A DNA stretch of 64,000 nucleotides from Alphaproteobacteria bacterium (GTDB lineage Bacteria; Pseudomonadota; Alphaproteobacteria; Rs-D84). Of this stretch, positions 10,093 to 49,580 are shown in pieces. The stretch covers positions 64,106 through 128,105 of the forward strand of contig JAFQTD010000029.1 of the NCBI GenBank assembly GCA_017409215.1, read 5' to 3'. A program made the translations under genes and the position numbers. The notes below the pieces were generated by a model. The model searched no databases, was not told where the DNA came from, and was given only the letters and a program-made list of their open reading frames with translations. Each line of letters opens with the position of its first letter. Position 1 is the first letter of the stretch.

Positions 10093-10153
10093 CTTTTATC
10101 TTTATTTTAGTTGAATTTTGTGGTATTATTACTTTGATGAGAGGAAAGTGATT

Positions 10154-10990
10154 ATGAAAAGATTGTATCCATTGTTTTTTTGTTTGACTTCGTTGGTTGT
10201 TGTTGATGCGTGGGCCATCAATCCGATTAGAAATTCTTCTTCGGGGCGTGTTATGACAGCGCAGAGGGCAGGGGTTGTTTCGAAGAAACAGGTTTCTGTA
10301 AATGCCCCGCAGACTGAAAAATTGTCTGATGTAGCGACGACAGAAACGGTTGATGATTCTGCCGCGGTTGCAGAAGAAGTTAAGGCCACTGAAAAAGATA
10401 TGCGTGAAAAAGAACGTATGGCATGTATGGCAAATAATATCGGTGTAAGTAATACTTTTGTTTGGGCATCACGTTATAGTGATACGTCGAATTATGCCAC
10501 AATGGTAGAGGATGTAGAGGTGCCAGATAATAATGTCTGTTTTGTAAAGGCGGCGTTGAAATCAAAAGATCCAAAAATTGATGTTTCTGGTGTGCCTGCA
10601 AAATACTTTGAAATGGGACAGGTTGTGACCTGTGGTGGTTGGGCTGATTATGATTCGTTGAAACAGCAGATATTGGATGCGAAAAAGAAAGGCCGTACAC
10701 TGGGGACGATTGCATCTGTTGTTGGTGCCGCAGGTGTCGGTGTTGGCGCGATGGAATTGTTTGGTAATAAATTAATTGGTGGCAAGGTCGAAGGACAAGT
10801 GAGTTTAGGTGATACAGAATTCTTGCGGTCTGAATTGTTGATTTTACAAAAAGAAGATGTTGCGAAATACAATGAATTTACAGAGAAGTTGAAAGAATTA
10901 GCCGAAGAATGTGGGGATGATAAAGAAAACGAATATTGTAAAAAGTATGTTAAGTTGCACGATTTGATGTTCCCAAAAAACGCTAAGTAA
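10154..10990 (+). CDS. secreted Cys-domain / glycine-zipper protein, paralogue of 39698-40585
   Basis: The ATG at 10154 is preceded by GAGGAAAG. It has a signal peptide (MKRLYPLFFCLTSLVVVDAWA). About 190 C-terminal residues align by eye with the 39698 protein; I estimate more than half the positions are identical (NTFVWA, NNVCFVK, GTIASVVGxAGxGVGAMELFGNKLIGGKV). Confidence 0.6.
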   Translation: MKRLYPLFFCLTSLVVVDAWAINPIRNSSSGRVMTAQRAGVVSKKQVSVNAPQTEKLSDVATTETVDDSAAVAEEVKATEKDMREKERMACMANNIGVSNTFVWASRYSDTSNYATMVEDVEVPDNNVCFVKAALKSKDPKIDVSGVPAKYFEMGQVVTCGGWADYDSLKQQILDAKKKGRTLGTIASVVGAAGVGVGAMELFGNKLIGGKVEGQVSLGDTEFLRSELLILQKEDVAKYNEFTEKLKELAEECGDDKENEYCKKYVKLHDLMFPKNAK

Positions 10991-39697: not shown

Positions 39698-40585
39698 GTG
39701 AAAAAATATTTAATTTGTTTGCTTTCGTGTTTGTTTGTTTTGGATGCTGGTGCAGTGACGGCACGTTCTGGGCGTGCGACGTCTGGTCAGCCGATGACTT
39801 TGGGAATGTCGGGCAGGGCGCGACAGTCCGATTTCAAAACAGGGCCCATTAGATTGCAGGGAAATAAGGCTGTGATTCCAGGTGCACCAACTGCGCCAGA
39901 TACACCGGTTGACCCAACACCTGATGTTGACCCAACACCAGATACACCGGTTAATCCGACGCCTGATGTTGATCCAATGCTGGAAGAAATTGCCAGACAG
40001 CGAAATATTTGTCTGTCGAATAATGTTGGCATCAGTAATACTTTTGTTTGGGCGGACAGAAATTCGGATGTGACGAATTATGCATATATGGTTGAAAATG
40101 TCGAAAATCCTGCAAACAATGTTTGTTTCGTAAAGGTTGATATGCGTTCATCTGATGGACGTGTTGATTTGTCTGATATTAAAAGCAAGTATTTTGTTAT
40201 GGGATCTGGAATTAACTGTGGACAGTGGGCAGATGAAAAAGTGCTGGAAGAACGTATCTTGGATGCAACCAAAAAGGGACGCACATGGGGAACAATCGCA
40301 TCTGTTGTTGGGGGTGCGGGTGCCGGTGTTGGTGCAATGGAATTGTTTGGTAACAAGTTAATTGGTGGCAAGGTTCAGGGACAAAAAGCATTAGAGGGTC
40401 AGGAACTGTTGCGGTCGCAAATATTGGCATTGGAAAAAACAAATAAAGCAGAGTATGACAGAATTGTTAATGCGCTGGATGTGCTGGAAAAAGAGTGTAA
40501 ATCAGATGTTTGGAATGGTGGCAACAGACCCGCTGATTGTAATCTGAATAATCCATTTATTGGGCTAAGGGCGAAATTAAAGTAA
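39698..40585 (+). CDS. secreted Pro-linker / Cys-domain / glycine-zipper protein (paralogue of 10154-10990)
   Basis: The GTG start lies after GGAGGG. It has a signal peptide, a DTPV[DN]PTPDVDP x2 linker, and a conserved domain with NTFVWA, NNVCFVK, CGQWAD and GTIASVVGGAGAGVGAMELFGNKLIGGKV. Confidence 0.6.
   Translation: MKKYLICLLSCLFVLDAGAVTARSGRATSGQPMTLGMSGRARQSDFKTGPIRLQGNKAVIPGAPTAPDTPVDPTPDVDPTPDTPVNPTPDVDPMLEEIARQRNICLSNNVGISNTFVWADRNSDVTNYAYMVENVENPANNVCFVKVDMRSSDGRVDLSDIKSKYFVMGSGINCGQWADEKVLEERILDATKKGRTWGTIASVVGGAGAGVGAMELFGNKLIGGKVQGQKALEGQELLRSQILALEKTNKAEYDRIVNALDVLEKECKSDVWNGGNRPADCNLNNPFIGLRAKLK
39899..39976 (+). repeat. 42-bp tandem duplication encoding the DTPV(D/N)PTPDVDP proline-rich linker
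   Basis: GATACACCGGTTGACCCAACACCTGATGTTGACCCA (39899-39934) and GATACACCGGTTAATCCGACGCCTGATGTTGATCCA (39941-39976). Confidence 0.8.
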
Positions 40586-40613: not shown

Positions 40614-43355
40614 ATGAGAAAGTATTTTTTTATGATTTTTGCGACTTTTTTTGCGGGAAATCTGTGGGCGGCATGTCAGCCAACAACTAATGTTTTAGAA
40701 AATAGGTCTGAGCCAGATCATGACGAATATTTATATGAGAATACTAGGGAGCGTGAAATAAGACAAAATAAAGGACAAGGCGAGGCTTACTTGTGTGGTT
40801 ATGAAGATAAGGGCGGATGCCCACGTGGTGAAAGATTTGCTTTCCGAAATGCAGCAGTTGGTGCTGATAATTATACGGGATTGACGGTATATACTTGTGC
40901 TGGGGGGGGCGACAATTATTTTTGGGAAGCTGTAACAGTGGAAGAAAAATGTTATTCGGATGAACGTGTTTATAGTGAATCTGTTGGTGGGATGACCTTG
41001 TATAAGCTAGGTAATAATAAATATTGTGAACACGTTGTATATCTTAAAGATCTGATAAGAGCAATTGCAGATGATGCGATAGCTAACAATAATGATACTT
41101 TGTTAGAACAGTTTTGGGAAGAGTTGAATACAAAAATTGAAAATATCTATAGAAGTGATGCTTTTATGAATGCAGTTGTGAATGTTGTGAATGGTATGGA
41201 TAAGCCTTTATCAGAAGATAATTTGAATACAATTATTGGATTGATTACGCAAGGAATTCAGAATTCGGGCTTTGCGGATAAAATTGGTGATATCCAATCG
41301 GATATAGAAGGTATAAAAGACCGTATATCTAATCTAGAAGTTAATGTGACGCAGTTAAAGACTGATTTGAAAAACACCACTGATAGTCTTTTTAAGCTTG
41401 CTGTTAAGTATGACGTAACAGTCACAAAAATACAGGCGGAATTTGATGAGTTTTGGGAACAATTGAATGCCAGGATGACTAAAGAAGAGATAGAGGAATT
41501 TGTTAATGAAAAAATCGCTACATTGGAAGAAATGCTTATGTATCTGATACAAGACCAGGGGCGGGATCTTGATAATTTCAAGAATGAAGTTGCAACGATA
41601 CATGAAGTCTTGCAGATTAAGTTGAATGAACATGGTATTAAAATTGCAGAATTGGATAGCAGAATTGCTGCTTTAGAGGGACGTATGGAAGTGGCCGAAG
41701 ATAATATAGCAAGATTAAGAGAAGGGTTGAATCAGGCTGTGACAAAAATTCATGAGCTTGCTGCAGAGTATGGAGTATCTCTTATAAAAACAGAAGCGGA
41801 ATTTAAAAAGGTTTGGGCTGAGTTAGGTAATAAAATGAACAAGGATGATGTAGAGGAATTGGTAAAAACATACATTATAAATTCAGAGCAGATAATTATG
41901 CAGGAAATTCAAAATACAAATTTTGATCTTGATGAATTTAAGAAGAAAGTTGCAGAGATAGAGACAGATTTGCGGGATGAGTTGGAAAAGCATGGTATTA
42001 AAATTGCAGAATTGGATAGCAGGATAGATGCGTTAGAGAATCGTGTTGGTGCAATAGAAGGTGATGTGACGGATTTAAAAACTGGTTTGAAAAACACCGC
42101 TGATAGTCTTTTTGCGCTTGCTGTTAAGTATGACGCAAAAGTCACAGAAATACAGACGGAATTTGAAAAGGTTTGGGCTGAGTTAGGTAATAAAATGAAC
42201 AAGGATGATGTAGAGAAGTTGGTAAAAACATACATTATAGATTTAGAGCAGAAAATTATGCAGGAAATTCAAAATACAAATGTTGATCTTGATGAATTTA
42301 AGAAGAAAGTTGCAGATATAGAGAAAAAATTGCAGGATAAGTTGGAAGAACATGGTATTAAAATTACTGAATTGGATAAAAGGATAACAGAGTTAGAGAC
42401 TCGTGTTGGTGCAATAGAAGTTAATGTGACGGAGTTAAAAACTGATTTGAAAAACACCACTAATAGTCTTCTTGTGCTTGCTACTAAATATGACGTAAAA
42501 GTCGCAGAAATAGAGGCGGAATTTGAAAATGTTTGGGAACAATTGAAAGCCACGATGACTAAAGAAGAGATAGAGGAATTTGTTAATGAACAAATCGCTG
42601 CATTGGAAGAAAAACTTATGGAGCAGATAAATAAACAGGGGAAGGATCTTGAAAATTTCAAGAATGAAGTGAAAAAAATAGAGAACGATTTGAAAGATCG
42701 ATTAAATAAAATTGATATTAGGTTGGATGGTCTGGAAAGTCGTATTAATGATTTAGAGGTTGCGAAGGAAGATATTATCTCTAAATTAGAAAAATTAGCG
42801 GAGACCGATGAAGAATTGAAGAAGGCGATTGAGGCTTTAAAGGCAGATTTAGCGAATAAGGTCACAATGGAAGAGGTTATTGTGGAAATCACAAATAGAC
42901 TTGAAAATGCGGAATTGAACAATAATCAGAGAAAACAAGTGATTGAGTTGATTGAAACATATACTGTCCAATTATCAGATGGGCAACGGCAACAGGTTGA
43001 AATAATGATACAACAAAAAATTGGTAAAAAGTTTGATGAATTAGATGCGACAAATAAATTGCAGGATGAACAAAGGAAGTCACAAGACAGGGTTAATTCT
43101 GCGATGTCTGTTTTGAATGCGTTCGCAGCGGGTCAGGATGCGTCTGTCTGGCGTAATGCAGACGGTAAGTTTAACACAGCGCGTTTGGCATCTGATGCGA
43201 CTGCTGGTGTCATTCTGGGTACCGCCGGTGGTTTGATTTCAAACAAGGTAATTAAGAAAAATCAAATCAAAAAGGGATTTGAGGGTATCGGATGTTATGT
43301 CGGTGGCCAGGTGGTGGCTGATTATGGGGATGAATTTACAGTCGGTATGATGTAA
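40614..43355 (+). CDS. 913-aa secreted coiled-coil repeat protein with an N-terminal Cys domain and a C-terminal glycine-zipper/Cys tail
   Basis: Signal peptide MRKYFFMIFATFFAGNLWA. About 170 aa of Cys-containing head, then four 120-aa heptad-rich repeats. The tail is AGVILGTAGGLISNKV...GIGCYVGGQVVADYGDEFTVGMM. Confidence 0.65.
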   Translation: MRKYFFMIFATFFAGNLWAACQPTTNVLENRSEPDHDEYLYENTREREIRQNKGQGEAYLCGYEDKGGCPRGERFAFRNAAVGADNYTGLTVYTCAGGGDNYFWEAVTVEEKCYSDERVYSESVGGMTLYKLGNNKYCEHVVYLKDLIRAIADDAIANNNDTLLEQFWEELNTKIENIYRSDAFMNAVVNVVNGMDKPLSEDNLNTIIGLITQGIQNSGFADKIGDIQSDIEGIKDRISNLEVNVTQLKTDLKNTTDSLFKLAVKYDVTVTKIQAEFDEFWEQLNARMTKEEIEEFVNEKIATLEEMLMYLIQDQGRDLDNFKNEVATIHEVLQIKLNEHGIKIAELDSRIAALEGRMEVAEDNIARLREGLNQAVTKIHELAAEYGVSLIKTEAEFKKVWAELGNKMNKDDVEELVKTYIINSEQIIMQEIQNTNFDLDEFKKKVAEIETDLRDELEKHGIKIAELDSRIDALENRVGAIEGDVTDLKTGLKNTADSLFALAVKYDAKVTEIQTEFEKVWAELGNKMNKDDVEKLVKTYIIDLEQKIMQEIQNTNVDLDEFKKKVADIEKKLQDKLEEHGIKITELDKRITELETRVGAIEVNVTELKTDLKNTTNSLLVLATKYDVKVAEIEAEFENVWEQLKATMTKEEIEEFVNEQIAALEEKLMEQINKQGKDLENFKNEVKKIENDLKDRLNKIDIRLDGLESRINDLEVAKEDIISKLEKLAETDEELKKAIEALKADLANKVTMEEVIVEITNRLENAELNNNQRKQVIELIETYTVQLSDGQRQQVEIMIQQKIGKKFDELDATNKLQDEQRKSQDRVNSAMSVLNAFAAGQDASVWRNADGKFNTARLASDATAGVILGTAGGLISNKVIKKNQIKKGFEGIGCYVGGQVVADYGDEFTVGMM
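41271..42800 (+). repeat. four 360-bp in-frame tandem repeats plus a partial fifth, inside the coiled-coil gene
   Basis: CATGGTATTAAAATT recurs at 41631, 41991 and 42351, an exact 360-nt period. Units 2 and 3 are near-identical in their second halves. Units 1 and 4 resemble each other. Confidence 0.85.
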
Positions 43356-43568
43356 AATTAAATATAATGGTCTATCTAAAGCGAATGGGGGTGGCTTATG
43401 TAGCGTTTGTACACTACGCCACCCCCATTGGTTTTATCTAAATCATTATAATTAATTTTCAAAATTAACCATAATAATTCATCTAAAACCAATCCCGCCA
43501 ACTTATGTAACTTCTGTACACTGCGTTGTCGGGATTGATTTTATCTAAATCATCATAATTAATTTTAC
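43356..43568 (+). repeat. two tandem DR-hairpin-DR elements
   Basis: Copy 1 has stem AATGGGGGTGGC/GCCACCCCCATT. Copy 2 has stem CAATCCCGCCAAC/GTTGTCGGGATTG. Both have loop TTATGTA(G/A)C(G/T)T(T/C)TGTACAC and TATCTAAA flanks. Confidence 0.8.
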
Positions 43569-43980
43569 CGCCTTGCAAGGGGGGGAAGAAGTGTTGGGTG
43601 TTTAATATGTCCCTGCGGGGCAATGGATACCCGCCTGCGCGGGAATGACGAATAGAGGGGGCAGGTGATGGTTGGGTGTGGTTGGTTTTGTTTTCTTTGT
43701 TTTAACAATTTTTTGTAAAAAAAATTGTCATTCCATGGCTTGACCATGGAACCTAGGTTATGTATTCCTTATTATCGGCACTACCTGGGTCCTGTGGTCA
43801 AGCCACAGGATGACAAAGAGTTAAAAATTTGCAATTTTTGCGGGGCGCGATGCGGGTAGGACGATGAACGAGGGCGGGGCCTGATACGGGAATGACGAAG
43901 AGGCGGGTGTGGAGGCCCGATACGGGTATGACGAGAGTGTGAGTAGGGGCCTGATACGCGGGAATGACGAAGAGAGGGGT
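43569..43980 (+). repeat. REP-like composite array
   Basis: It contains ACCGCCTTGCAAGGGGG, a GTCCCTGCGGGG...GGGAATGACGA unit (43608-43650), an inverted pair of GTCATxCxxxGGCTTGACCxxxGxA hairpins (43727-43814), an AAAAATTTGCAATTTTTG palindrome, and three GGGGCCxGATACGGGxATGACGA units (43877-43975). Confidence 0.8.
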
Positions 43981-43985
43981 GTATT

Positions 43986-44011
43986 AAAAATCCCCCATGG
44001 GGGTGGGGGAT
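43986..44011 (-). terminator. Rho-independent terminator of the Cys-rich protein gene
   Basis: Stem ATCCCCC/GGGGGAT followed by a T-run on the minus strand. Confidence 0.7.
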
Positions 44012-44037
44012 TTGTGTCGATTAAATTTGGAATATTT

Positions 44038-47000
44038 CTATTCCGATAGCTGTGTCGAAATCATATCGCCATACATACCGATTTCGTCAGCACCGATAAA
44101 GCAACGGATTTTCGACCCCAGATTGTCCATGAATTCTTGATAGGCTTCTTGTTCGGCCTTGTCAAGTTTTGCGTTGTGAGCATCTTGGACAATGTGATAT
44201 ACGGTTAATCCACCCGCCAGTGCAGTACCCGCACCAACAATTGCCGCACCGCCCCATTTTTGGAACCAGCCATCGCTGTCTTCCATATTGATTGCGCCGG
44301 CATAAGTGCTTGTACATGCGTCTAACATTGTTTTTAAAGCTCCTGCTGCTGCTGCTGCTTCGTCTGTATTCGAATCGGATATTTCCGTGCTATCGTTTGG
44401 AGCGTTACCCCATATAGCTGCATTGTTGATTAATGCAGAGGATTTTGTTTTATCAGAAGCGGCAATATGTGCATCGCGTATTTCGTTCTCTATATCTCTG
44501 CAATCTTCTAGATCGTTTGCGTTGTTGTTGCAAAGGGTTCGTACACCGCTGGAAAGGTTTTCGGCGGCGGTAATTGCCTCTGTTGCGGTGGATTGCGCTT
44601 CTTTCCACTGAGCCAGAGATGAACCTGAAGCCCCAGGCGCTGTAGACCAAGAATTAAATTGTTGTATGGCAAGGCGTGCTTTGTTTTCGCAAATTTCAGC
44701 ATTTTTCTTTAGTTTGTTTGCGGTATTATCACGCAGTTTGTTTTTCTTGTTCAAACCACCGATTTTGCCGTCAGCAATTGCGTTGCCCAGGAATGCACCA
44801 CCAGTACCCAGACCCAATGCAGCAGCGGCAGTTATCCAACCTTTTTGGCGCTTTGCCTTGGCGGTGGCATTGCCATCGCGGTCTTCCAAACCGGTGGCAG
44901 CGCGTCCTTCTTGCGCGGCGGCATCGGCCAATTCCGCCAGGTCATCAGCTGATAACCATGAACCACAGGTAAATGTATCACCCAATGCAAAGTATGCAGT
45001 TGACCATGATGCATTGTTCTTTATCGCATCTTGGATGTTTTTGTCGTCAGATTGCAATGTGACACGCACACGACAGAATGATCCGTACAGGTCGTTACTG
45101 GCCACGAATTGATTCGTGCTGAGACCAGAAATCGCATAGTTCTTTGGTACGTTTCTGCTCTTTAATTTTACCCACATATATGTAGATCCGTTGTCAGCAT
45201 TGCCCAAAATACCACCCGAATTTGTCGACAGACACATATTTTGTTCACGTGTCAACTTTGCGTTGTATTTCGCCTGGGCCTCTTTTTCAATATCGTAGAC
45301 CAGATCCTTGAATAAGCTGTTTGCAGCTTGTTCTTGCTTGTATGTGGTGACCGATATGTATACTGGTTTGTCATAGGCTGCGCCATTTTCGTCAAAGTCA
45401 TAACATGTACCTTCGACACCAGCAGCATTAGTGCATACATCGTTACCGTTTGCATCAATCTTTTTTACTTGGTCTGTTTGGGCGGTTACGCTGGTTGCAC
45501 TGCCGGCATCATACCAACCAGAACGTACAGAATCAGCATTGCCCCAAGTGTTGGCCATATTGTTGTCCATGTTCATGTCAAGTTTTGCTGTCTCAATCGC
45601 AAGGTGTTCCGCGCAAACGTCAGAGTTTTTCACTGCGTTTACACATAGCCCCAGGATGATTGTGTAATCCAGTACACCGCCAACCTTGTTCATTGATTTG
45701 TCAAATGATGCGTTGCCTGTGTTTGTTAAGTTGGACATCACATCTGTACGATTGCGATAGCAATTTACATAGTCGGCACCACACATGGATTTTACACAGC
45801 TGGTCGCCAATGTTTGACATTGCTTTTTCATTTGTGCAATTGCAACATCGTTGTATGAATTGTTTAATGTCGCATCCAGGTTCGCAACAACACCAATTGG
45901 GTCCATTTTTGTTTCTGCCTGTGGGAATAGAATTTCAAATGCATCGCCCTTGTTATATGCGTAATCAAAGCCACCAGTGGATGTTGGGTTTTGTGCCGCA
46001 TAGATACAGTTCGGGTCAGTGTTTACAACAGATGCACAGCCTTTTTGAATCTGGGCATATGTGTTTTTGCCGTTTATGCCACCGGCACTGGCCAATTTGT
46101 AGCACGCAGCACCAGACCCGCCACCACAAGTGCGCATTGCACAGGCGCGGATTGTTTGTGTGCATTTATCCTTGGCTTCGGTATCAAATTTGTTTACCAA
46201 GTCAGAAATCTTGGATGTCATGCCAGAATTCATACGTGTGGAATATGCCTGGGCAAATACGTCTTCTTGGTTGAATTCGTCACGTAATTCAGAATTTGTT
46301 GGCATTTTGCCTTCGCCAATAAATGTTGCATAGCAATATTTGTTTTGGCCAATTGTATCCATACATTCGCCACGAACATATTTGTTTATGTCTGTTTTGC
46401 TGAGTGTGGTCATCATTGCATCTTCGGTTGGGCCACCAAATGCATTCATATCACCGCGCAAGATATATTCAGCAGATTTTATTATGCCCTGAGGTGTGTT
46501 CTCATAACATTTGTATGGGTTTTTAGTACATGCATTTAATATGCATTGGTCAACCACGCGATAGCAGGTCGATACCGCGTTAATTGCGGCATTTGTTGCG
46601 CCATCTGTAATCATTATGCCGATGCGACTGCTGCCGTCTGGGTCAACAGTACGTGATGCAGAACCAAATAGTTCTTTTAGACCGTCGCTTTGGCAACGCG
46701 CAAGTACGGAATCGCATGCAATGCGTTGCTTTTTGAATTCTTTGTTAGATGTGCATAGTTCAAATTCAGAACCGCATACGTTTTCGCGATTTAGGCATGT
46801 TGTATAACGACGAACACAATTTGATGTGTCGTACATATTCGATATCGCACCAGCTGTAATCAACTGACCCAGCGCGCTGTCGTCCATGGGATATGTGTAG
46901 TCGGTGACTTCGTCGTATTCATTTTTTGTTGCAACGTTTGATAAAACGTCCATGTTGGATGTTCCAAACAGCCGTTGTATGCCACCGTTCGAGCATTGGT

Positions 47001-47355
47001 ATAATGTGCTGAGGCATTGTGGCATCTTGGCATGAAATAAAACCTTGTTCGTGCATTCTTCAAAATTGGAACCGCACACATCGGTATCTTTGATACAGGT
47101 CAGGTATTCATCAACACACTTTGTGTCGTCTAGTAAAGATGAGCTGGCACTGGTCGTTGTGACAGTGGCAACAGTACCACCGCTGGACTTTGCAAGTGCA
47201 GATGCAAGTGTTGGCATACGACGCCCAGATGCGCTGACCGCGGCCGCCCCCTTGCCAACAGGCATAACCCCAGGACGCGCAGTCACACCATGTGCAACAG
47301 AAACGACGCTGAACGCAAAGATTAAACTGAATGTGTGTTTTAAAAATGATGGCAT
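44038..47355 (-). CDS. roughly 1105-aa secreted Cys-rich protein with an embedded copy of the 10154/39698 domain, two glycine zippers and the shared C-terminal tail
   Basis: The ATG at 47355 lies 6 nt after AGGAG. Signal peptide MPSFLKHTFSLIFAFSVVSVAHG. About 40 Cys, with repeated C-x6-C-x6-C-x6-C-x12-C-x6-C blocks. The tail is GTALAGGL...IRCFIGADEIGMYGD. Confidence 0.65.
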   Translation of the reverse strand: MPSFLKHTFSLIFAFSVVSVAHGVTARPGVMPVGKGAAAVSASGRRMPTLASALAKSSGGTVATVTTTSASSSLLDDTKCVDEYLTCIKDTDVCGSNFEECTNKVLFHAKMPQCLSTLYQCSNGGIQRLFGTSNMDVLSNVATKNEYDEVTDYTYPMDDSALGQLITAGAISNMYDTSNCVRRYTTCLNRENVCGSEFELCTSNKEFKKQRIACDSVLARCQSDGLKELFGSASRTVDPDGSSRIGIMITDGATNAAINAVSTCYRVVDQCILNACTKNPYKCYENTPQGIIKSAEYILRGDMNAFGGPTEDAMMTTLSKTDINKYVRGECMDTIGQNKYCYATFIGEGKMPTNSELRDEFNQEDVFAQAYSTRMNSGMTSKISDLVNKFDTEAKDKCTQTIRACAMRTCGGGSGAACYKLASAGGINGKNTYAQIQKGCASVVNTDPNCIYAAQNPTSTGGFDYAYNKGDAFEILFPQAETKMDPIGVVANLDATLNNSYNDVAIAQMKKQCQTLATSCVKSMCGADYVNCYRNRTDVMSNLTNTGNASFDKSMNKVGGVLDYTIILGLCVNAVKNSDVCAEHLAIETAKLDMNMDNNMANTWGNADSVRSGWYDAGSATSVTAQTDQVKKIDANGNDVCTNAAGVEGTCYDFDENGAAYDKPVYISVTTYKQEQAANSLFKDLVYDIEKEAQAKYNAKLTREQNMCLSTNSGGILGNADNGSTYMWVKLKSRNVPKNYAISGLSTNQFVASNDLYGSFCRVRVTLQSDDKNIQDAIKNNASWSTAYFALGDTFTCGSWLSADDLAELADAAAQEGRAATGLEDRDGNATAKAKRQKGWITAAAALGLGTGGAFLGNAIADGKIGGLNKKNKLRDNTANKLKKNAEICENKARLAIQQFNSWSTAPGASGSSLAQWKEAQSTATEAITAAENLSSGVRTLCNNNANDLEDCRDIENEIRDAHIAASDKTKSSALINNAAIWGNAPNDSTEISDSNTDEAAAAAGALKTMLDACTSTYAGAINMEDSDGWFQKWGGAAIVGAGTALAGGLTVYHIVQDAHNAKLDKAEQEAYQEFMDNLGSKIRCFIGADEIGMYGDMISTQLSE

Positions 47356-47429
47356 TCCCAACTCCTGTATTTATACTTATTTTTTATTCTAGCATAATTT
47401 AGCAACATTAAAAAGCAAAAAATCGTGCA

Positions 47430-48167
47430 TTAGAATAAAATGTTTACTTGTGCGCCAACTTGGATGTCGTCGCTTTCAAATTCATAGTCAATATGGCCCG
47501 AGTATTGTGTGCGGCCAAATTGCCGAACCAGATTAAAATGTAGCCATTCTTGGTCGTAATCTTGACCCGTTAGACGGTCTTGGTTGGTGGCGACACGTAT
47601 CGTTAGGCCGGTACCAAAACGCCAGTCGGGGGCAATTCTAAAATATGCCTGGGGGATAAAATCAAGGTATGCCATTCCCCGTAAATCGTCAAATATCCAA
47701 CTGGACTTTATCGTGCCAGATAGTGTCATCCCGGCCCATTGACGACCAAAACGAAGCCCCGCATAATAGGTTGAATCTGCATAGTATGGGGTGCGTACTT
47801 GGCTGCTGCCACCGAATTTGAAGCCAAATAGTACGTCCGATATTATGCCCGAATTGTTGTCGCTGGCGGTTGCAATACGATAGGTTGCCCCAAGGTCGGT
47901 CGCAGCAAAACCGTCTTCGTTGCCGTTAAAGTCGTGTTGATAGTGTATGTTTATACCAACAGATAAACGATCGTTTAGGCCGTATGATAATGATTGACCC
48001 GCACGTAAAATATGGTCCCAATATGTTATGGTTGATTTTGATAAAACGCTGGACATCGGTTGTATGTATAATGGGTCAGATGTGTCGTTATCCAGAATGT
48101 TTGAATGACCAAGGGTCGGGATTAATAGTGATAATACAATGAATATTCTTGATAAAAAATTGTGCAT
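47430..48167 (-). CDS. small outer-membrane beta-barrel protein (about 245 aa)
   Basis: Signal peptide MHNFLSRIFIVLSLLIPTLG, alternating hydrophobic beta-strand pattern rich in Y/G/D/N, and a C-terminal ...VNILF with terminal Phe. Confidence 0.55.
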   Translation of the reverse strand: MHNFLSRIFIVLSLLIPTLGHSNILDNDTSDPLYIQPMSSVLSKSTITYWDHILRAGQSLSYGLNDRLSVGINIHYQHDFNGNEDGFAATDLGATYRIATASDNNSGIISDVLFGFKFGGSSQVRTPYYADSTYYAGLRFGRQWAGMTLSGTIKSSWIFDDLRGMAYLDFIPQAYFRIAPDWRFGTGLTIRVATNQDRLTGQDYDQEWLHFNLVRQFGRTQYSGHIDYEFESDDIQVGAQVNILF

Positions 48168-48236
48168 GGAAATTCTCTCTCGCTTGTGAAAAAAAAGCAT
48201 TTTTGCCCCCAAGTATTATGCTTGGGGGCATGGGGG

Positions 48237-49535
48237 TTAGAATTGGAATATTGCCTGAACACCAATTGTGGTTTCTGCAATATTATCCACCTTTACTGTG
48301 CCAAAATGGGTTAGTTGATTTAGAGGAAATACTGTCCCGTCTGCTGGATTTTGAGCCTCTATATGTGGTTCCATCCAGTATAAATCAAGGTTTTTGTCGT
48401 TCGCACTGTCAAAGAATGCTGTCTTGGCATACAGATTTAATGCAAACCAATCGTTTGGTTGCCAGCCAAGCGCACCCTTGATGGATGCCTGGTTGTGCCA
48501 GTCGTAATGACCAAATACACCTTCTAGGTTCAAGGTCCAGTCTTCGTTCAACACACTGAACATACCCAGACCGCCTTCGATGTAGATGGCATTGCTGCTG
48601 CCAACCTGATATGGGATATAGAATGCTGCAGGTTTACCATTTTCGTCAAAACCAGTAATCCCATTGCCATAGGAGTTCCCATCCAGGTCAAGATACCATG
48701 CGCGCGCCAATCCATAAATAGTGGATTTTGATACTTTATAACCAGCCTTGATGTCAATCAGGAAGTTGTTTGATATGTCTTGCTGATGTTGAAAGTATGC
48801 GGATGCGGTCGCAATCCATTGGTCGTTATCAATAAAGCGCCACTGTGCACCAAGACCAAATATGTTCAGACCATCGTCGTCCATTGTGTCGGCAGGTGCG
48901 CCATTGTCATATTCGAACTTGTAATCGTTCATATCATATTCAAGCAAGCCAACCAATGCGATTTGGTCGTTAATACCATAACTAAAATGTTCTTTGATGG
49001 AAATTTGGTCTGCCTTCCATTTGCCACCAACGCCATTTAGTGCCAGTGAAAATGGGTCACTGCTGCCCGCTGGGCGAATTGGCAATGTTTGATTAATTAC
49101 AAAATCATACGAGTTGTTGGTAAAACCAATGTCCGTAATGGAACCAAATTTTTCACCCAATGGTTGGAAGAATGGGTGTGCAAGATAATATTTGCGACGC
49201 ATCTTGGTCGTCACAGTTTCAGAACGGGTCTTGCGTACGGTGGTTTTTGTTGCAGTCGCAGCAGGAGAATTTGCCGCAGTATAGGATTTGTACATTGTGT
49301 TGCGATTTGCAGGCTTTACATAGTACATATCACTATTGTTTTTTGTTTCGTACGTTTTGGTTGTTGTACGGGTTGTGTATTTTCTGTAATTTATGCTGTT
49401 TTGTTCGCGTGTTGCAGGCGCGTCAGATAGGTTGGCGGTTGTACCAGCGCGTGCGCCGACGTTGGTTGCGGCAGTGGCAGTACCAGTGCCGATAATGGCC
49501 AATGCGCCAAGAAATAATGGTAATGTTCTTTTCAT
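48237..49535 (-). CDS. outer-membrane beta-barrel protein (about 432 aa) with a Thr/Lys/Arg/Tyr-rich N-terminal extension
   Basis: The ATG at 49535 is preceded by AAAGGAG. Signal peptide MKRTLPLFLGALAIIGTGTATA. The first roughly 110 aa are low-complexity, followed by a beta-strand pattern and a C-terminal ...VQAIFQF. Confidence 0.55.
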   Translation of the reverse strand: MKRTLPLFLGALAIIGTGTATAATNVGARAGTTANLSDAPATREQNSINYRKYTTRTTTKTYETKNNSDMYYVKPANRNTMYKSYTAANSPAATATKTTVRKTRSETVTTKMRRKYYLAHPFFQPLGEKFGSITDIGFTNNSYDFVINQTLPIRPAGSSDPFSLALNGVGGKWKADQISIKEHFSYGINDQIALVGLLEYDMNDYKFEYDNGAPADTMDDDGLNIFGLGAQWRFIDNDQWIATASAYFQHQQDISNNFLIDIKAGYKVSKSTIYGLARAWYLDLDGNSYGNGITGFDENGKPAAFYIPYQVGSSNAIYIEGGLGMFSVLNEDWTLNLEGVFGHYDWHNQASIKGALGWQPNDWFALNLYAKTAFFDSANDKNLDLYWMEPHIEAQNPADGTVFPLNQLTHFGTVKVDNIAETTIGVQAIFQF

Positions 49536-49580
49536 GTTAAATCTCCTTTTGATTGTGATTATAGCATAAATATTTATCAT

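Follow-up and report, generated by a model that had tools for sequence, protein, structure and literature searches.

A C-terminal tail common to diverse exported proteins of Candidatus Enterousia: a possible envelope-anchoring domain with a proposed P3-like partner

Introduction

Members of Candidatus Enterousia (order Rs-D84), a gut and rumen lineage that is metabolically dependent and has not been cultured, are believed to interact with partner organisms by way of unknown envelope proteins (PMC12306168). The genome considered here is about 1 Mb in size, and the bacterium probably depends on a partner organism. In the 64 000-nucleotide stretch of this genome that was analysed (the window), two convergent genes encode large proteins, one a coiled coil and the other rich in cysteine, whose C-termini resemble each other. 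Whether these two ends are one and the same module, and what such a module would do at the end of such different proteins, are the questions raised by this locus.

Architecture of the two tails

The first gene (40614-43355, plus strand) encodes P0001, a coiled-coil protein of 913 residues, as judged from its translation, its orthologues and family matches confined to coiled-coil families. P0001 comprises a signal peptide, six N-terminal cysteines, about 700 residues of coiled-coil repeats and a tail termed type A, and its translated C-terminal sequence is ...ATAGVILGTAGGLISNKVIKKNQIKKGFEGIGCYVGGQVVADYGDEFTVGMM. The parts of the tail are, in order, a W-x4-G-x-FNT-x-RL-x-SD motif, a glycine-zipper helix, a KKNQ cluster and a β-hairpin with an invariant cysteine. 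The pre-helix motif of P0001, WRNADGKFNTARLASD (residues 846-861; 43149-43196, plus strand), was delimited by its invariant columns, and a set of 55 aligned tails shows no substitution at its W, G, F, N, R, L, S and D. It is followed by the zipper helix ATAGVILGTAGGLISNKVI with a GxxxGxxxG pattern (residues 862-880; 43197-43253, plus strand; translation, alignment and AF2) and by the basic cluster KKNQIKK (residues 881-887; 43254-43274, plus strand; translation and alignment), where alignment columns K53, K54 and Q56 are invariant or nearly so. The cysteine hairpin GFEGIGCYVGGQVVADYGDEFTVGMM (residues 888-913; 43275-43352, plus strand) closes the protein; it was assigned from the alignment, in which Cys894 occupies the invariant column C66, from the strands predicted by AF2 and from cysteine counts. 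For the tail alone (an 85-residue query), AF2 predicts with low confidence (pLDDT 67.7) one long helix at residues 27-63 and strands at 65-68 and 71-75.

The second gene (44038-47361, minus strand) encodes P0002, a cysteine-rich protein of 1107 residues, defined by its translation, its orthologues and a profile of the P3-like family described below. P0002 contains both the tail and the P3-like module (type B), in the order signal peptide, cysteine array, P3-like domain, zipper 1, helical region, zipper 2 and cysteine hairpin, and its translated C-terminus is ...WGGAAIVGAGTALAGGLTVYHIV...LGSKIRCFIGADEIGMYGDMISTQLSE. The P3-like domain covers residues ~705-888 (44698-45249, minus strand; 66.7 bits against the P3 profile), and zipper 1, placed by the position of the zipper, lies inside it at about 44773-44841 on the same strand. 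The type-B tail includes zipper helix 2, WGGAAIVGAGTALAGGLTVYHIV (residues 1036-1058; 44188-44256, minus strand; translation and profile alignment), and ends with the hairpin GSKIRCFIGADEIGMYGDMISTQLSE (residues 1082-1107; 44041-44118, minus strand), which contains Cys1087 and was identified by translation, BLASTP and profile alignment. Between them lies a linker recognized as an alignment gap (residues 1059-1081; 44119-44187, minus strand), in which the profile alignment places an insertion of ~16 residues, between helix and cysteine motif, that is missing from type A.

An earlier sequence-only reading of this DNA had placed the shared tails at 43089-43352 and 44041-44271, with YGD six residues past C-[YF]-[VI]-G in both proteins; the translations of the two reading frames agree exactly with the coordinates and also with the spacing. 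The same reading took the rest of the two proteins to be unrelated. This has to be qualified, in that residues ~705-888 of P0002 are a diverged copy of the P3-like protein encoded next to the P0001 gene (39698-40585), so that P0002 is not wholly unrelated to its neighbourhood.

Homology of the type-A and type-B tails

The relationship between the two tails was established through orthologue intermediates and profile-profile comparison, both of which were needed. The type-A HMM matches the tail of L049, a full-length P0002 orthologue (40% identity over 1113 residues), at E = 1e-6 and that of a second orthologue, L047, at 3e-9. Alignment of 36 type-A tails with the tails of P0002 orthologues by hhalign gave a probability of 97.7% and E = 2.5e-12 over 54 columns, among them those of the hairpin, and the spacing of the cysteine and [YWF]-G-[DE] is kept in both families. 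That the resemblance is a chance likeness of two glycine-rich hydrophobic segments is very improbable: pairwise BLASTP of the P0001 and P0002 tails is not significant (E = 2) and matches only the 15-residue IxC..YGD stretch, and an HMM built from type A only does not, at E ≤ 10, recover the P0002 tail from the genome to which the window belongs, but the profile match takes in the non-hydrophobic cysteine hairpin, the intermediates match the type-A HMM and the spacing is common to both families. On this comparison of profiles, the type-A and type-B tails are homologous, and one undescribed tail of ~70 residues ends both proteins.

Distribution of the tail and diversity of its carriers

A strict regular expression, C[YFW][VILM]G..YGD, applied to all open reading frames of the genome returned the two window proteins only and missed a third copy on another contig, which reads CTIG..WGD; profile searches were then used in its place. 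With these, 953 tail-bearing cluster representatives (50% clustering) were collected, where the earlier reading had left room for there being no further carriers. The tail is present in 80 of 81 Enterousia genomes, nine of ten genomes from sister genera and one of 30 genomes of other families, in one to ten copies per genome. It ends 0-11 residues from the stop codon in all 84 cases, and 80 of 81 carriers have a signal-peptide-like N-terminus. The N-terminal parts of the 81 carriers fall into 23 groups unrelated by BLAST; Pfam recognizes OmpA, CarbopepD_reg_2 and ankyrin domains in the front parts of some of them, and coiled coils, cysteine-rich arrays and β-sandwiches are other kinds of front end. 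The proposal of a conserved modular C-terminal tag on unrelated signal-peptide proteins is borne out by these numbers. Nor is the tag a recognized family: the tail has no match in Pfam, NCBIfam or PDB sequences, and when profiles of the tail and of P3 were run against PDB sequences, no meaningful hit came back.

A P3-like module associated with the tail

Directly upstream of the P0001 gene, at a distance of 28 bp, lies the gene for P0003 (39698-40585, plus strand), a P3-like protein of 295 residues and the proposed partner of the tail on the basis of the P3 profile, gene order, fusions and cysteine counts. It comprises a signal peptide, a proline-rich linker, a three-cysteine domain, a glycine zipper and a helical end with two cysteines; the zipper glycines of the P3-like consensus follow the pattern G-GAV-G-GAx-G-VG. 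A second stand-alone P3-like gene, P0004 (10118-10990, plus strand; P3 profile), is located between plsY and dprA-dnaA; at the dnaA locus, dprA and dnaA separate the P3-like gene from a tail gene. A P3-like gene stands directly upstream of the coiled-coil gene also in L063, L064, L066, L067, L068, L096, L102 and L130; in L075, L077, L098 and L103 it is the next gene downstream of a tail gene. Adjacency of this kind carries little weight, since the carriers are all members of a single family in which synteny is conserved.

The two modules are also fused, and in both orders. P3 precedes the tail in P0002 and its 762+ homologues, and the tail precedes P3 within a single reading frame (type C) in at least ten genomes; there the tail is internal, with P3 directly after it, so that it need not be a free C-terminus, and no more than about five residues separate the hairpin from the P3 domain. 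The range of P3 (81 of 81 genomes of the genus, nine of ten from sister genera and none of 30 of other families) matches that of the tail, and P3 is the only family found to be co-distributed with it. This shared range could simply reflect two lineage-specific inventions. The copy numbers are not 1:1, there being two stand-alone P3 genes and one to ten tails per genome. In all 42 stand-alone P3 proteins the domain follows a signal-peptide-like N-terminus.

Cysteine counts show a regular pattern across these arrangements. The number of cysteines in the front part is even in 75 of 81 carriers (p = 3e-16), so the tail cysteine is left unpaired within its own protein. In the P3 domain, three cysteines precede the zipper and two (once four) follow it in 43 of 43 proteins. 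All nine type-B proteins have an odd count, then an even one and then a single cysteine, and the region between the two helices of the nine P0002 orthologues always has an even number (2-10); the type-C fusions have one cysteine in the tail and five after it. Taken together, the P3 (3 + 2), type-B and type-C counts mean that the hairpin side always sums to 1 + 3.

Comparison with cleaved sorting signals

In the tripartite sorting tags, a short motif, a transmembrane helix and a basic cluster stand at the very end of the protein (PMC11980579, PMC3237569). The present tail resembles the LPXTG/sortase, PEP-CTERM/exosortase, GlyGly-CTERM/rhombosortase and MYXO-CTERM/myxosortase systems in being a C-terminal module shared by unrelated signal-peptide proteins of one lineage, and has a conserved motif, hydrophobic helix and basic cluster in the same order. 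A true sorting signal of this logic, recognized by a dedicated enzyme that then removes it or passes it to a lipid or wall acceptor, would suit the many-to-one relation, in which each genome has one to ten carriers whose front ends are unrelated, and the conserved motif just ahead of a TM-like helix; an invariant cysteine is moreover a MYXO-CTERM trait (PMC11980579). Several features of the tail, however, are at odds with it. The tail is ~70 residues long where tripartite tags have about 25-35, and adds beyond the basic cluster a conserved hairpin of 25 residues, a degree of conservation hard to explain in a discarded peptide; its cysteine stands after the helix and not before it; and it is internal, fused to its partner, in at least ten proteins. 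The sortase-like or protease gene that the earlier reading had called for was not found: searches of the 95.7%-complete genome for sortase (PF04203), exosortase (PF09721), rhomboid (PF01694) and CPBP/Rce1 (PF02517) gave no match, whereas the control genomes were detected, and the sole co-distributed family found is not enzyme-like. It is thus unlikely that the tail is a sorting tag of the classical, cleaved kind, and we regard processing by a dedicated enzyme as improbable. What survives of the sorting-signal proposal is the conserved modular tag with many-to-one carriers, and not its classical LPXTG, PEP-CTERM, GlyGly-CTERM or MYXO-CTERM form. Two β-barrel genes upstream of the P0002 gene (47430-49580) were considered as a dedicated pore and rejected as a conserved component, being missing within ~±4 kb of the orthologue in eight other genomes.

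Inner-membrane anchor or extracytoplasmic docking domain

A plainer function would be that of a type-I inner-membrane anchor, in which the glycine-rich helix stops transfer, the front part is periplasmic and a cysteine-containing tail of ~30 residues is cytoplasmic and reduced, where it may bind a cytoplasmic factor. The signal peptide combined with a single C-terminal hydrophobic helix is consistent with such an anchor, as is a tail cysteine that alone lacks a partner in the front part, as in a reducing compartment. The charge pattern, with Asp before the helix and KKNQ after it, obeys the positive-inside rule and is that expected of an inner-membrane stop-transfer anchor. OmpA-like front ends are likewise in keeping with a periplasmic front part.

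The fusions are difficult to reconcile with this topology. A tail-then-P3 protein would have its three-cysteine P3 domain in the cytoplasm, yet stand-alone P3 domains follow signal-peptide-like N-termini throughout; the inter-helix region of P0002 would likewise be cytoplasmic in spite of its even cysteine number in nine of nine orthologues, and the P0002 hairpin would face the side opposite to that of type A. The hydrophobicity of the helix is also no more than borderline (mean on the Kyte-Doolittle scale about 1.65, a hand sum; crude Hessa-scale sum about +4 kcal/mol, for type A also a hand sum), which is weak evidence, as such sums are poorly calibrated and signal peptides also give about +3. 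We consider a plain inner-membrane anchor unlikely, although a better candidate than a cleaved signal.

We propose instead, with a probability of roughly one half, that the tail is a modular envelope-anchoring or docking domain that pairs with the P3-like protein and is not a disposable sorting peptide. Judged by the close joint between hairpin and P3 and by the signal-peptide-like N-termini of P3, the hairpin is probably extracytoplasmic. The presence of BamA shows that an outer membrane exists, and as both faces of the helix pair seem to lie outside the cytoplasm, an outer-membrane location, or helices embedded without crossing the inner membrane, appears more likely. For an anchor of this kind, each way of placing the two faces has its difficulty: OmpA-like front ends favour a periplasmic front part, and the reported hypervariability and the 900-residue coiled coil favour a surface one. 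AF2 modelling of P0002 residues 690-1107 gave a poor model (pLDDT 54.6, pTM 0.38, both zippers below 45) that speaks neither for nor against helix packing.

The proposed anchor would work as follows. A tail carrier would be exported by its N-terminal signal peptide and would pair with a P3-like protein (39698-40585 or 10118-10990), the two glycine-zipper helices packing antiparallel. The tail hairpin would sit on the three-cysteine domain of the partner, and a disulfide linking the odd cysteine of each protein would probably hold the pair together. Diverse front ends (coiled coil, cysteine-rich arrays, OmpA-like, ankyrin and β-sandwich) would in this way be tethered to one common base, and P0002 would hold both modules in one chain. 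That the two proteins physically pair, that a disulfide links them and in which membrane they sit are inferred; the anchor is probably disulfide-locked and probably resides in the outer membrane. A more specific version, in which tail and P3-like protein form a new α-helical two-component display system of the outer membrane, with one zipper helix per polypeptide spanning the membrane, a disulfide lock between hairpin and P3, and swappable front ends shown on one face, is put forward as a tentative suggestion that we think unlikely to hold.

Relation to other envelope anchors

Glycine-zipper lipoproteins of the outer membrane are known, and in one of them, YiaD, the zipper is accompanied by an OmpA C-terminal domain (bioRxiv 10.64898/2025.12.22.696046), a combination also seen in the OmpA-like carriers of the tail. 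The 2TM glycine-zipper lipoproteins (SlyB, YfgH, OsmB and YiaD) share with the present proteins GxxxGxxxG helices, as in G-VIL-G-TAG-G of the P0001 tail, export in a diderm and two zipper helices that would act together. In contrast to them, the present proteins have no lipobox, and the signal peptides look SPase-I type, with Val, Ile or Asn ahead of the first cysteine in the coiled-coil orthologues. In place of an adjacent hairpin there is one zipper per polypeptide, or two that are separated by about 165-200 residues, roughly 190 in the single-chain form, and the zipper is flanked by further conserved stretches, namely the FNTARLASD motif and the cysteine hairpin. In hmmscan at E ≤ 10, the isolated tails and both P3-type zippers matched no relevant Pfam family, including Rick_17kDa_Anti, Gly-zipper_Omp, Gly-zipper_OmpA and Gly-zipper_YMGG, although HMMER filters may drop very weak matches.

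Trimeric autotransporter adhesins of the YadA type likewise join a long coiled-coil front to a short conserved C-terminal membrane anchor in variable adhesin-like proteins. P0001 has no match to the YadA anchor family in Pfam at E ≤ 1, and the tail is too short for four β-strands, is without a terminal aromatic residue and is predicted by AF2 as a helix and one hairpin. Variant-specific surface proteins of Giardia combine variable cysteine-rich ectodomains with an invariant transmembrane helix and a short conserved tail with a cysteine, and are eukaryotic type-I plasma-membrane proteins with a five-residue cytoplasmic tail; they are not homologous to the present proteins and are without a partner module.

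Significance

Some 950 distinct exported proteins of Enterousia and its relatives bear this one undescribed tail, and with a single profile the candidate anchored proteins can be found in every genome of the family. A specific partner, the P3-like protein, is suggested by the fusions and the cysteine counts. Even as an ordinary inner-membrane anchor, the tail would represent a new domain family that merits an entry in the databases. If the helices lie in the outer membrane, a helical anchor of two polypeptides would join the short list of diderm attachment modes, and if the display reading is true, proteins would be anchored or exposed in a diderm without a β-barrel, a lipid anchor or a sortase-like enzyme.

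Two convergent genes with homologous C-terminal tails

The gene for P0001 (40614-43355, + strand) encodes 913 residues, which on translation show a signal-peptide-like N-terminus, six N-terminal cysteines, a long coiled coil and a C-terminal tail. It converges on the gene for P0002 (44038-47361, - strand), a Cys-rich protein of 1107 residues ending in a second such tail. The 680-bp spacer between them (43356-44037) is full of hairpin repeats. Two hairpin units of ~105 bp stand in tandem, an inverted pair lies near 43727-43814, and a unit containing GGGAATGACGA recurs several times at 43640-43980. Against Pfam and NCBIfam, P0001 gave coiled-coil noise only, P0002 gave no match and neither tail was matched in either library. 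One P0002 homologue (P0244) is publicly named 'PE/PPE C-terminal domain-containing protein', which looks like an annotation artefact because the record carries no Pfam domain. Directly upstream of P0002 on the same strand (47430-49580, -) lie genes for two beta-barrel-like outer-membrane proteins of 260 and 447 residues, ending in ...NILF and ...FQF and without a Pfam match; they are absent beside the P0002 orthologue in eight other genomes examined, and this adjacency is thus not conserved.

The sequence-only reading had proposed one shared tail on both giant proteins, and its tail coordinates and motif spacing proved exact on the translated ORFs. BLASTP between the two tails is not significant (E = 2 over the 15-residue IxC...YGD stretch). 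Relatives of the P0001 tail (type A; 50-82% identity) end ORFs of 235-924 residues in 24 of 25 same-genus genomes. An HMM built from 36 of these P0001-like tails did not reach the P0002 tail in a search of the window's own genome, and matched, with E = 1e-6, the L049 tail, which belongs to a full-length orthologue of P0002 (40% identity across 1113 residues). When the type-B profile, made from the tails of P0002 and eight orthologues, was aligned with the type-A profile by hhalign, helix and Cys hairpin were both covered at a probability of 97.7% (E = 2.5e-12). Judged from these profiles, the two tails are homologous, which bears out the proposal. The window's genome holds a third copy on another contig (C17:30735-30974, -), 69% identical to the P0001 tail and with WGD replacing YGD; its 444-residue ORF carries two Cys-rich repeats and follows, in the translation read by eye, the apparent C-terminus of an ABC-transporter ATPase.

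The type-A consensus begins with SVWK-x3-G-x-FNTARLASD and continues with a helix, S-IAGVVLGTAGGLITS-x-VV, in which a GxxxGxxxG glycine zipper sits, then KKNQ-x-K and GFEDI-x-C-T-I-GGQ-x-VA-x-WGDEF-x-VG; W, G, F, N, R, L, S, D, A, G, K, Q, G, C and G are invariant in 55 sequences. AF2 on the type-A alignment predicted, with modest confidence (pLDDT 67.7), a single long helix and, behind it, a hairpin of two strands. Type B differs from type A by an insertion of ~16 residues between helix and hairpin.

Distribution and modularity

In public genomes all 84 tails, from 78 loci, end 0-11 residues before the stop codon, and 80 of 81 complete carriers have a signal-peptide-like start by our own heuristic. 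The parts preceding the tail fall into 23 groups without BLAST similarity to one another; Pfam recognizes an OmpA-family domain (32 bits, L075), CarbopepD_reg_2 or ankyrin repeats in some, and most give no Pfam match. Among 1.84 billion cluster representatives the tail profile matched 953 proteins at E<=1e-3 (926 at E<=1e-10), C-terminally in nearly all. When 121 genomes of the order were sampled, the tail was present in 80/81 from the genus, 9/10 from sister genera belonging to the same family and 1/30 from other families, at 1-10 copies per genome. In several genomes (G003:C1:181834-184951, G067:C2:76038-79401, G043, G072, G095, G102 and G110) two divergent or convergent tail genes with identical tail scores lie ~2.5-3 kb apart while their front parts differ, which points to a tail that was recently duplicated or gene-converted.

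A candidate partner module

P0003 (39698-40585), encoded 28 bp upstream of P0001, and its paralogue P0004 (10118-10990) are stand-alone P3-like proteins. They comprise, in order, a signal peptide, a low-complexity linker, a domain with three invariant cysteines, a glycine zipper (RTWATVGGAVGGA-x-VGVGAMELFGNKLIGG) and a helical end with two cysteines. The P3-like profile matches residues ~705-888 of P0002 (66.7 bits) and every P0002 orthologue; P0002 therefore consists of a Cys array, a P3-like module, a short helical region and the tail. The reverse order, namely front part, tail, ~5 residues and P3-like module in one ORF, occurs in at least ten other genomes. These opposite-order fusions are the strongest argument that the two modules would work together. 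Stand-alone P3-like genes also adjoin tail genes, in the order uvrB-tsaE-P3-tail in the window and tail-P3 in several cases; at the dnaA locus, dprA and dnaA intervene. The tail and the P3-like family share one phyletic range, the latter being present in 81/81 genomes of the genus, 9/10 of sister genera and 0/30 of other families. PDB sequence searches gave no match, and a single-chain AF2 model was too poor for packing to show.

The tail-then-P3 ORFs (L141-L149 and L043; e.g. G052:C1:94000-97500) form a third architecture of 379-990 residues with a whole P3-like module, and their tail Cys motif is altered to GC-[AS]-IDG from the usual C-T-I-GGQ. Right after their signal peptides, P0002 (VTARPG..., about 47292-47220, -) and P0003 (VTARSG..., about 39755-39830, +) share a short motif, with [AV]-T-A / A-A-T-S at this position in orthologues, which may be a second, N-terminal tag of P3-like-domain proteins.

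Probable anchoring, inferred topology and a probable disulfide

The tail had been read as a possible sorting signal. A real, widespread and previously undescribed C-terminal tag it is, but known sorting tags are tripartite with the basic cluster at the end (PMC11980579, PMC3237569), whereas here ~25 conserved residues follow that cluster. Sortase, exosortase, rhomboid and CPBP/Rce1 families were all absent from the 95.7%-complete genome, control genomes being positive in the same searches. More probably, the tail stays in place as an anchor or docking domain that has a dedicated partner.

The contiguity of hairpin and P3 domain in the tail-then-P3 fusions puts both on one side of any membrane. 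This side is extracytoplasmic, given the signal-peptide-like N-terminus of all 42 stand-alone P3 proteins. In tail proteins, too, the front part comes after a signal peptide, and it looks disulfide-bonded. Were both zippers to span a membrane, neither face would be cytoplasmic, which would exclude the inner membrane and point to the outer membrane, whose existence is indicated by BamA in the genome; alternatively, the zipper helices may be embedded without crossing. An otherwise attractive type-I inner-membrane anchor, which the Asp/KKNQ charge pattern supports, is contradicted by this topology. The nearest working analogy is offered by outer-membrane glycine-zipper lipoproteins, of which YiaD has an OmpA C-terminal domain (bioRxiv 10.64898/2025.12.22.696046); when tested, the tail fell outside the known families of this kind.

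After removal of predicted signal peptides, the front-part cysteine count is even in 75/81 carriers (p = 3e-16), leaving the invariant tail cysteine over. P3 domains have three cysteines before the zipper and two (once four) after it in 43/43 proteins. In 9/9 type-B proteins the count is odd before the first zipper, even between the zippers and one after the second; tail-then-P3 fusions have one in the tail and five after it. Hairpin and P3 domain thus always total four cysteines. A disulfide probably joins the two odd cysteines, tail hairpin to P3 domain. The window's genome encodes a DsbA-like Thioredoxin_4 ORF of 295 residues (C26:11779-12294), and DsbB (PF02600) was not found in the whole genome; dozens of cysteines in its exported proteins look disulfide-bonded notwithstanding. 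The organism is reported to be without respiratory chains.

The window's assembly comprises 1.13 Mb in 37 contigs, and the relatives found to carry the tail are MAGs from gut and rumen that bear the label Alphaproteobacteria or Candidatus Enterousia. This lineage of the order Rs-D84 is genome-reduced and probably partner-dependent (PMC12306168). The tail represents a domain family not described before and, probably, a new form of envelope anchoring, restricted to a single family of uncultured gut bacteria.
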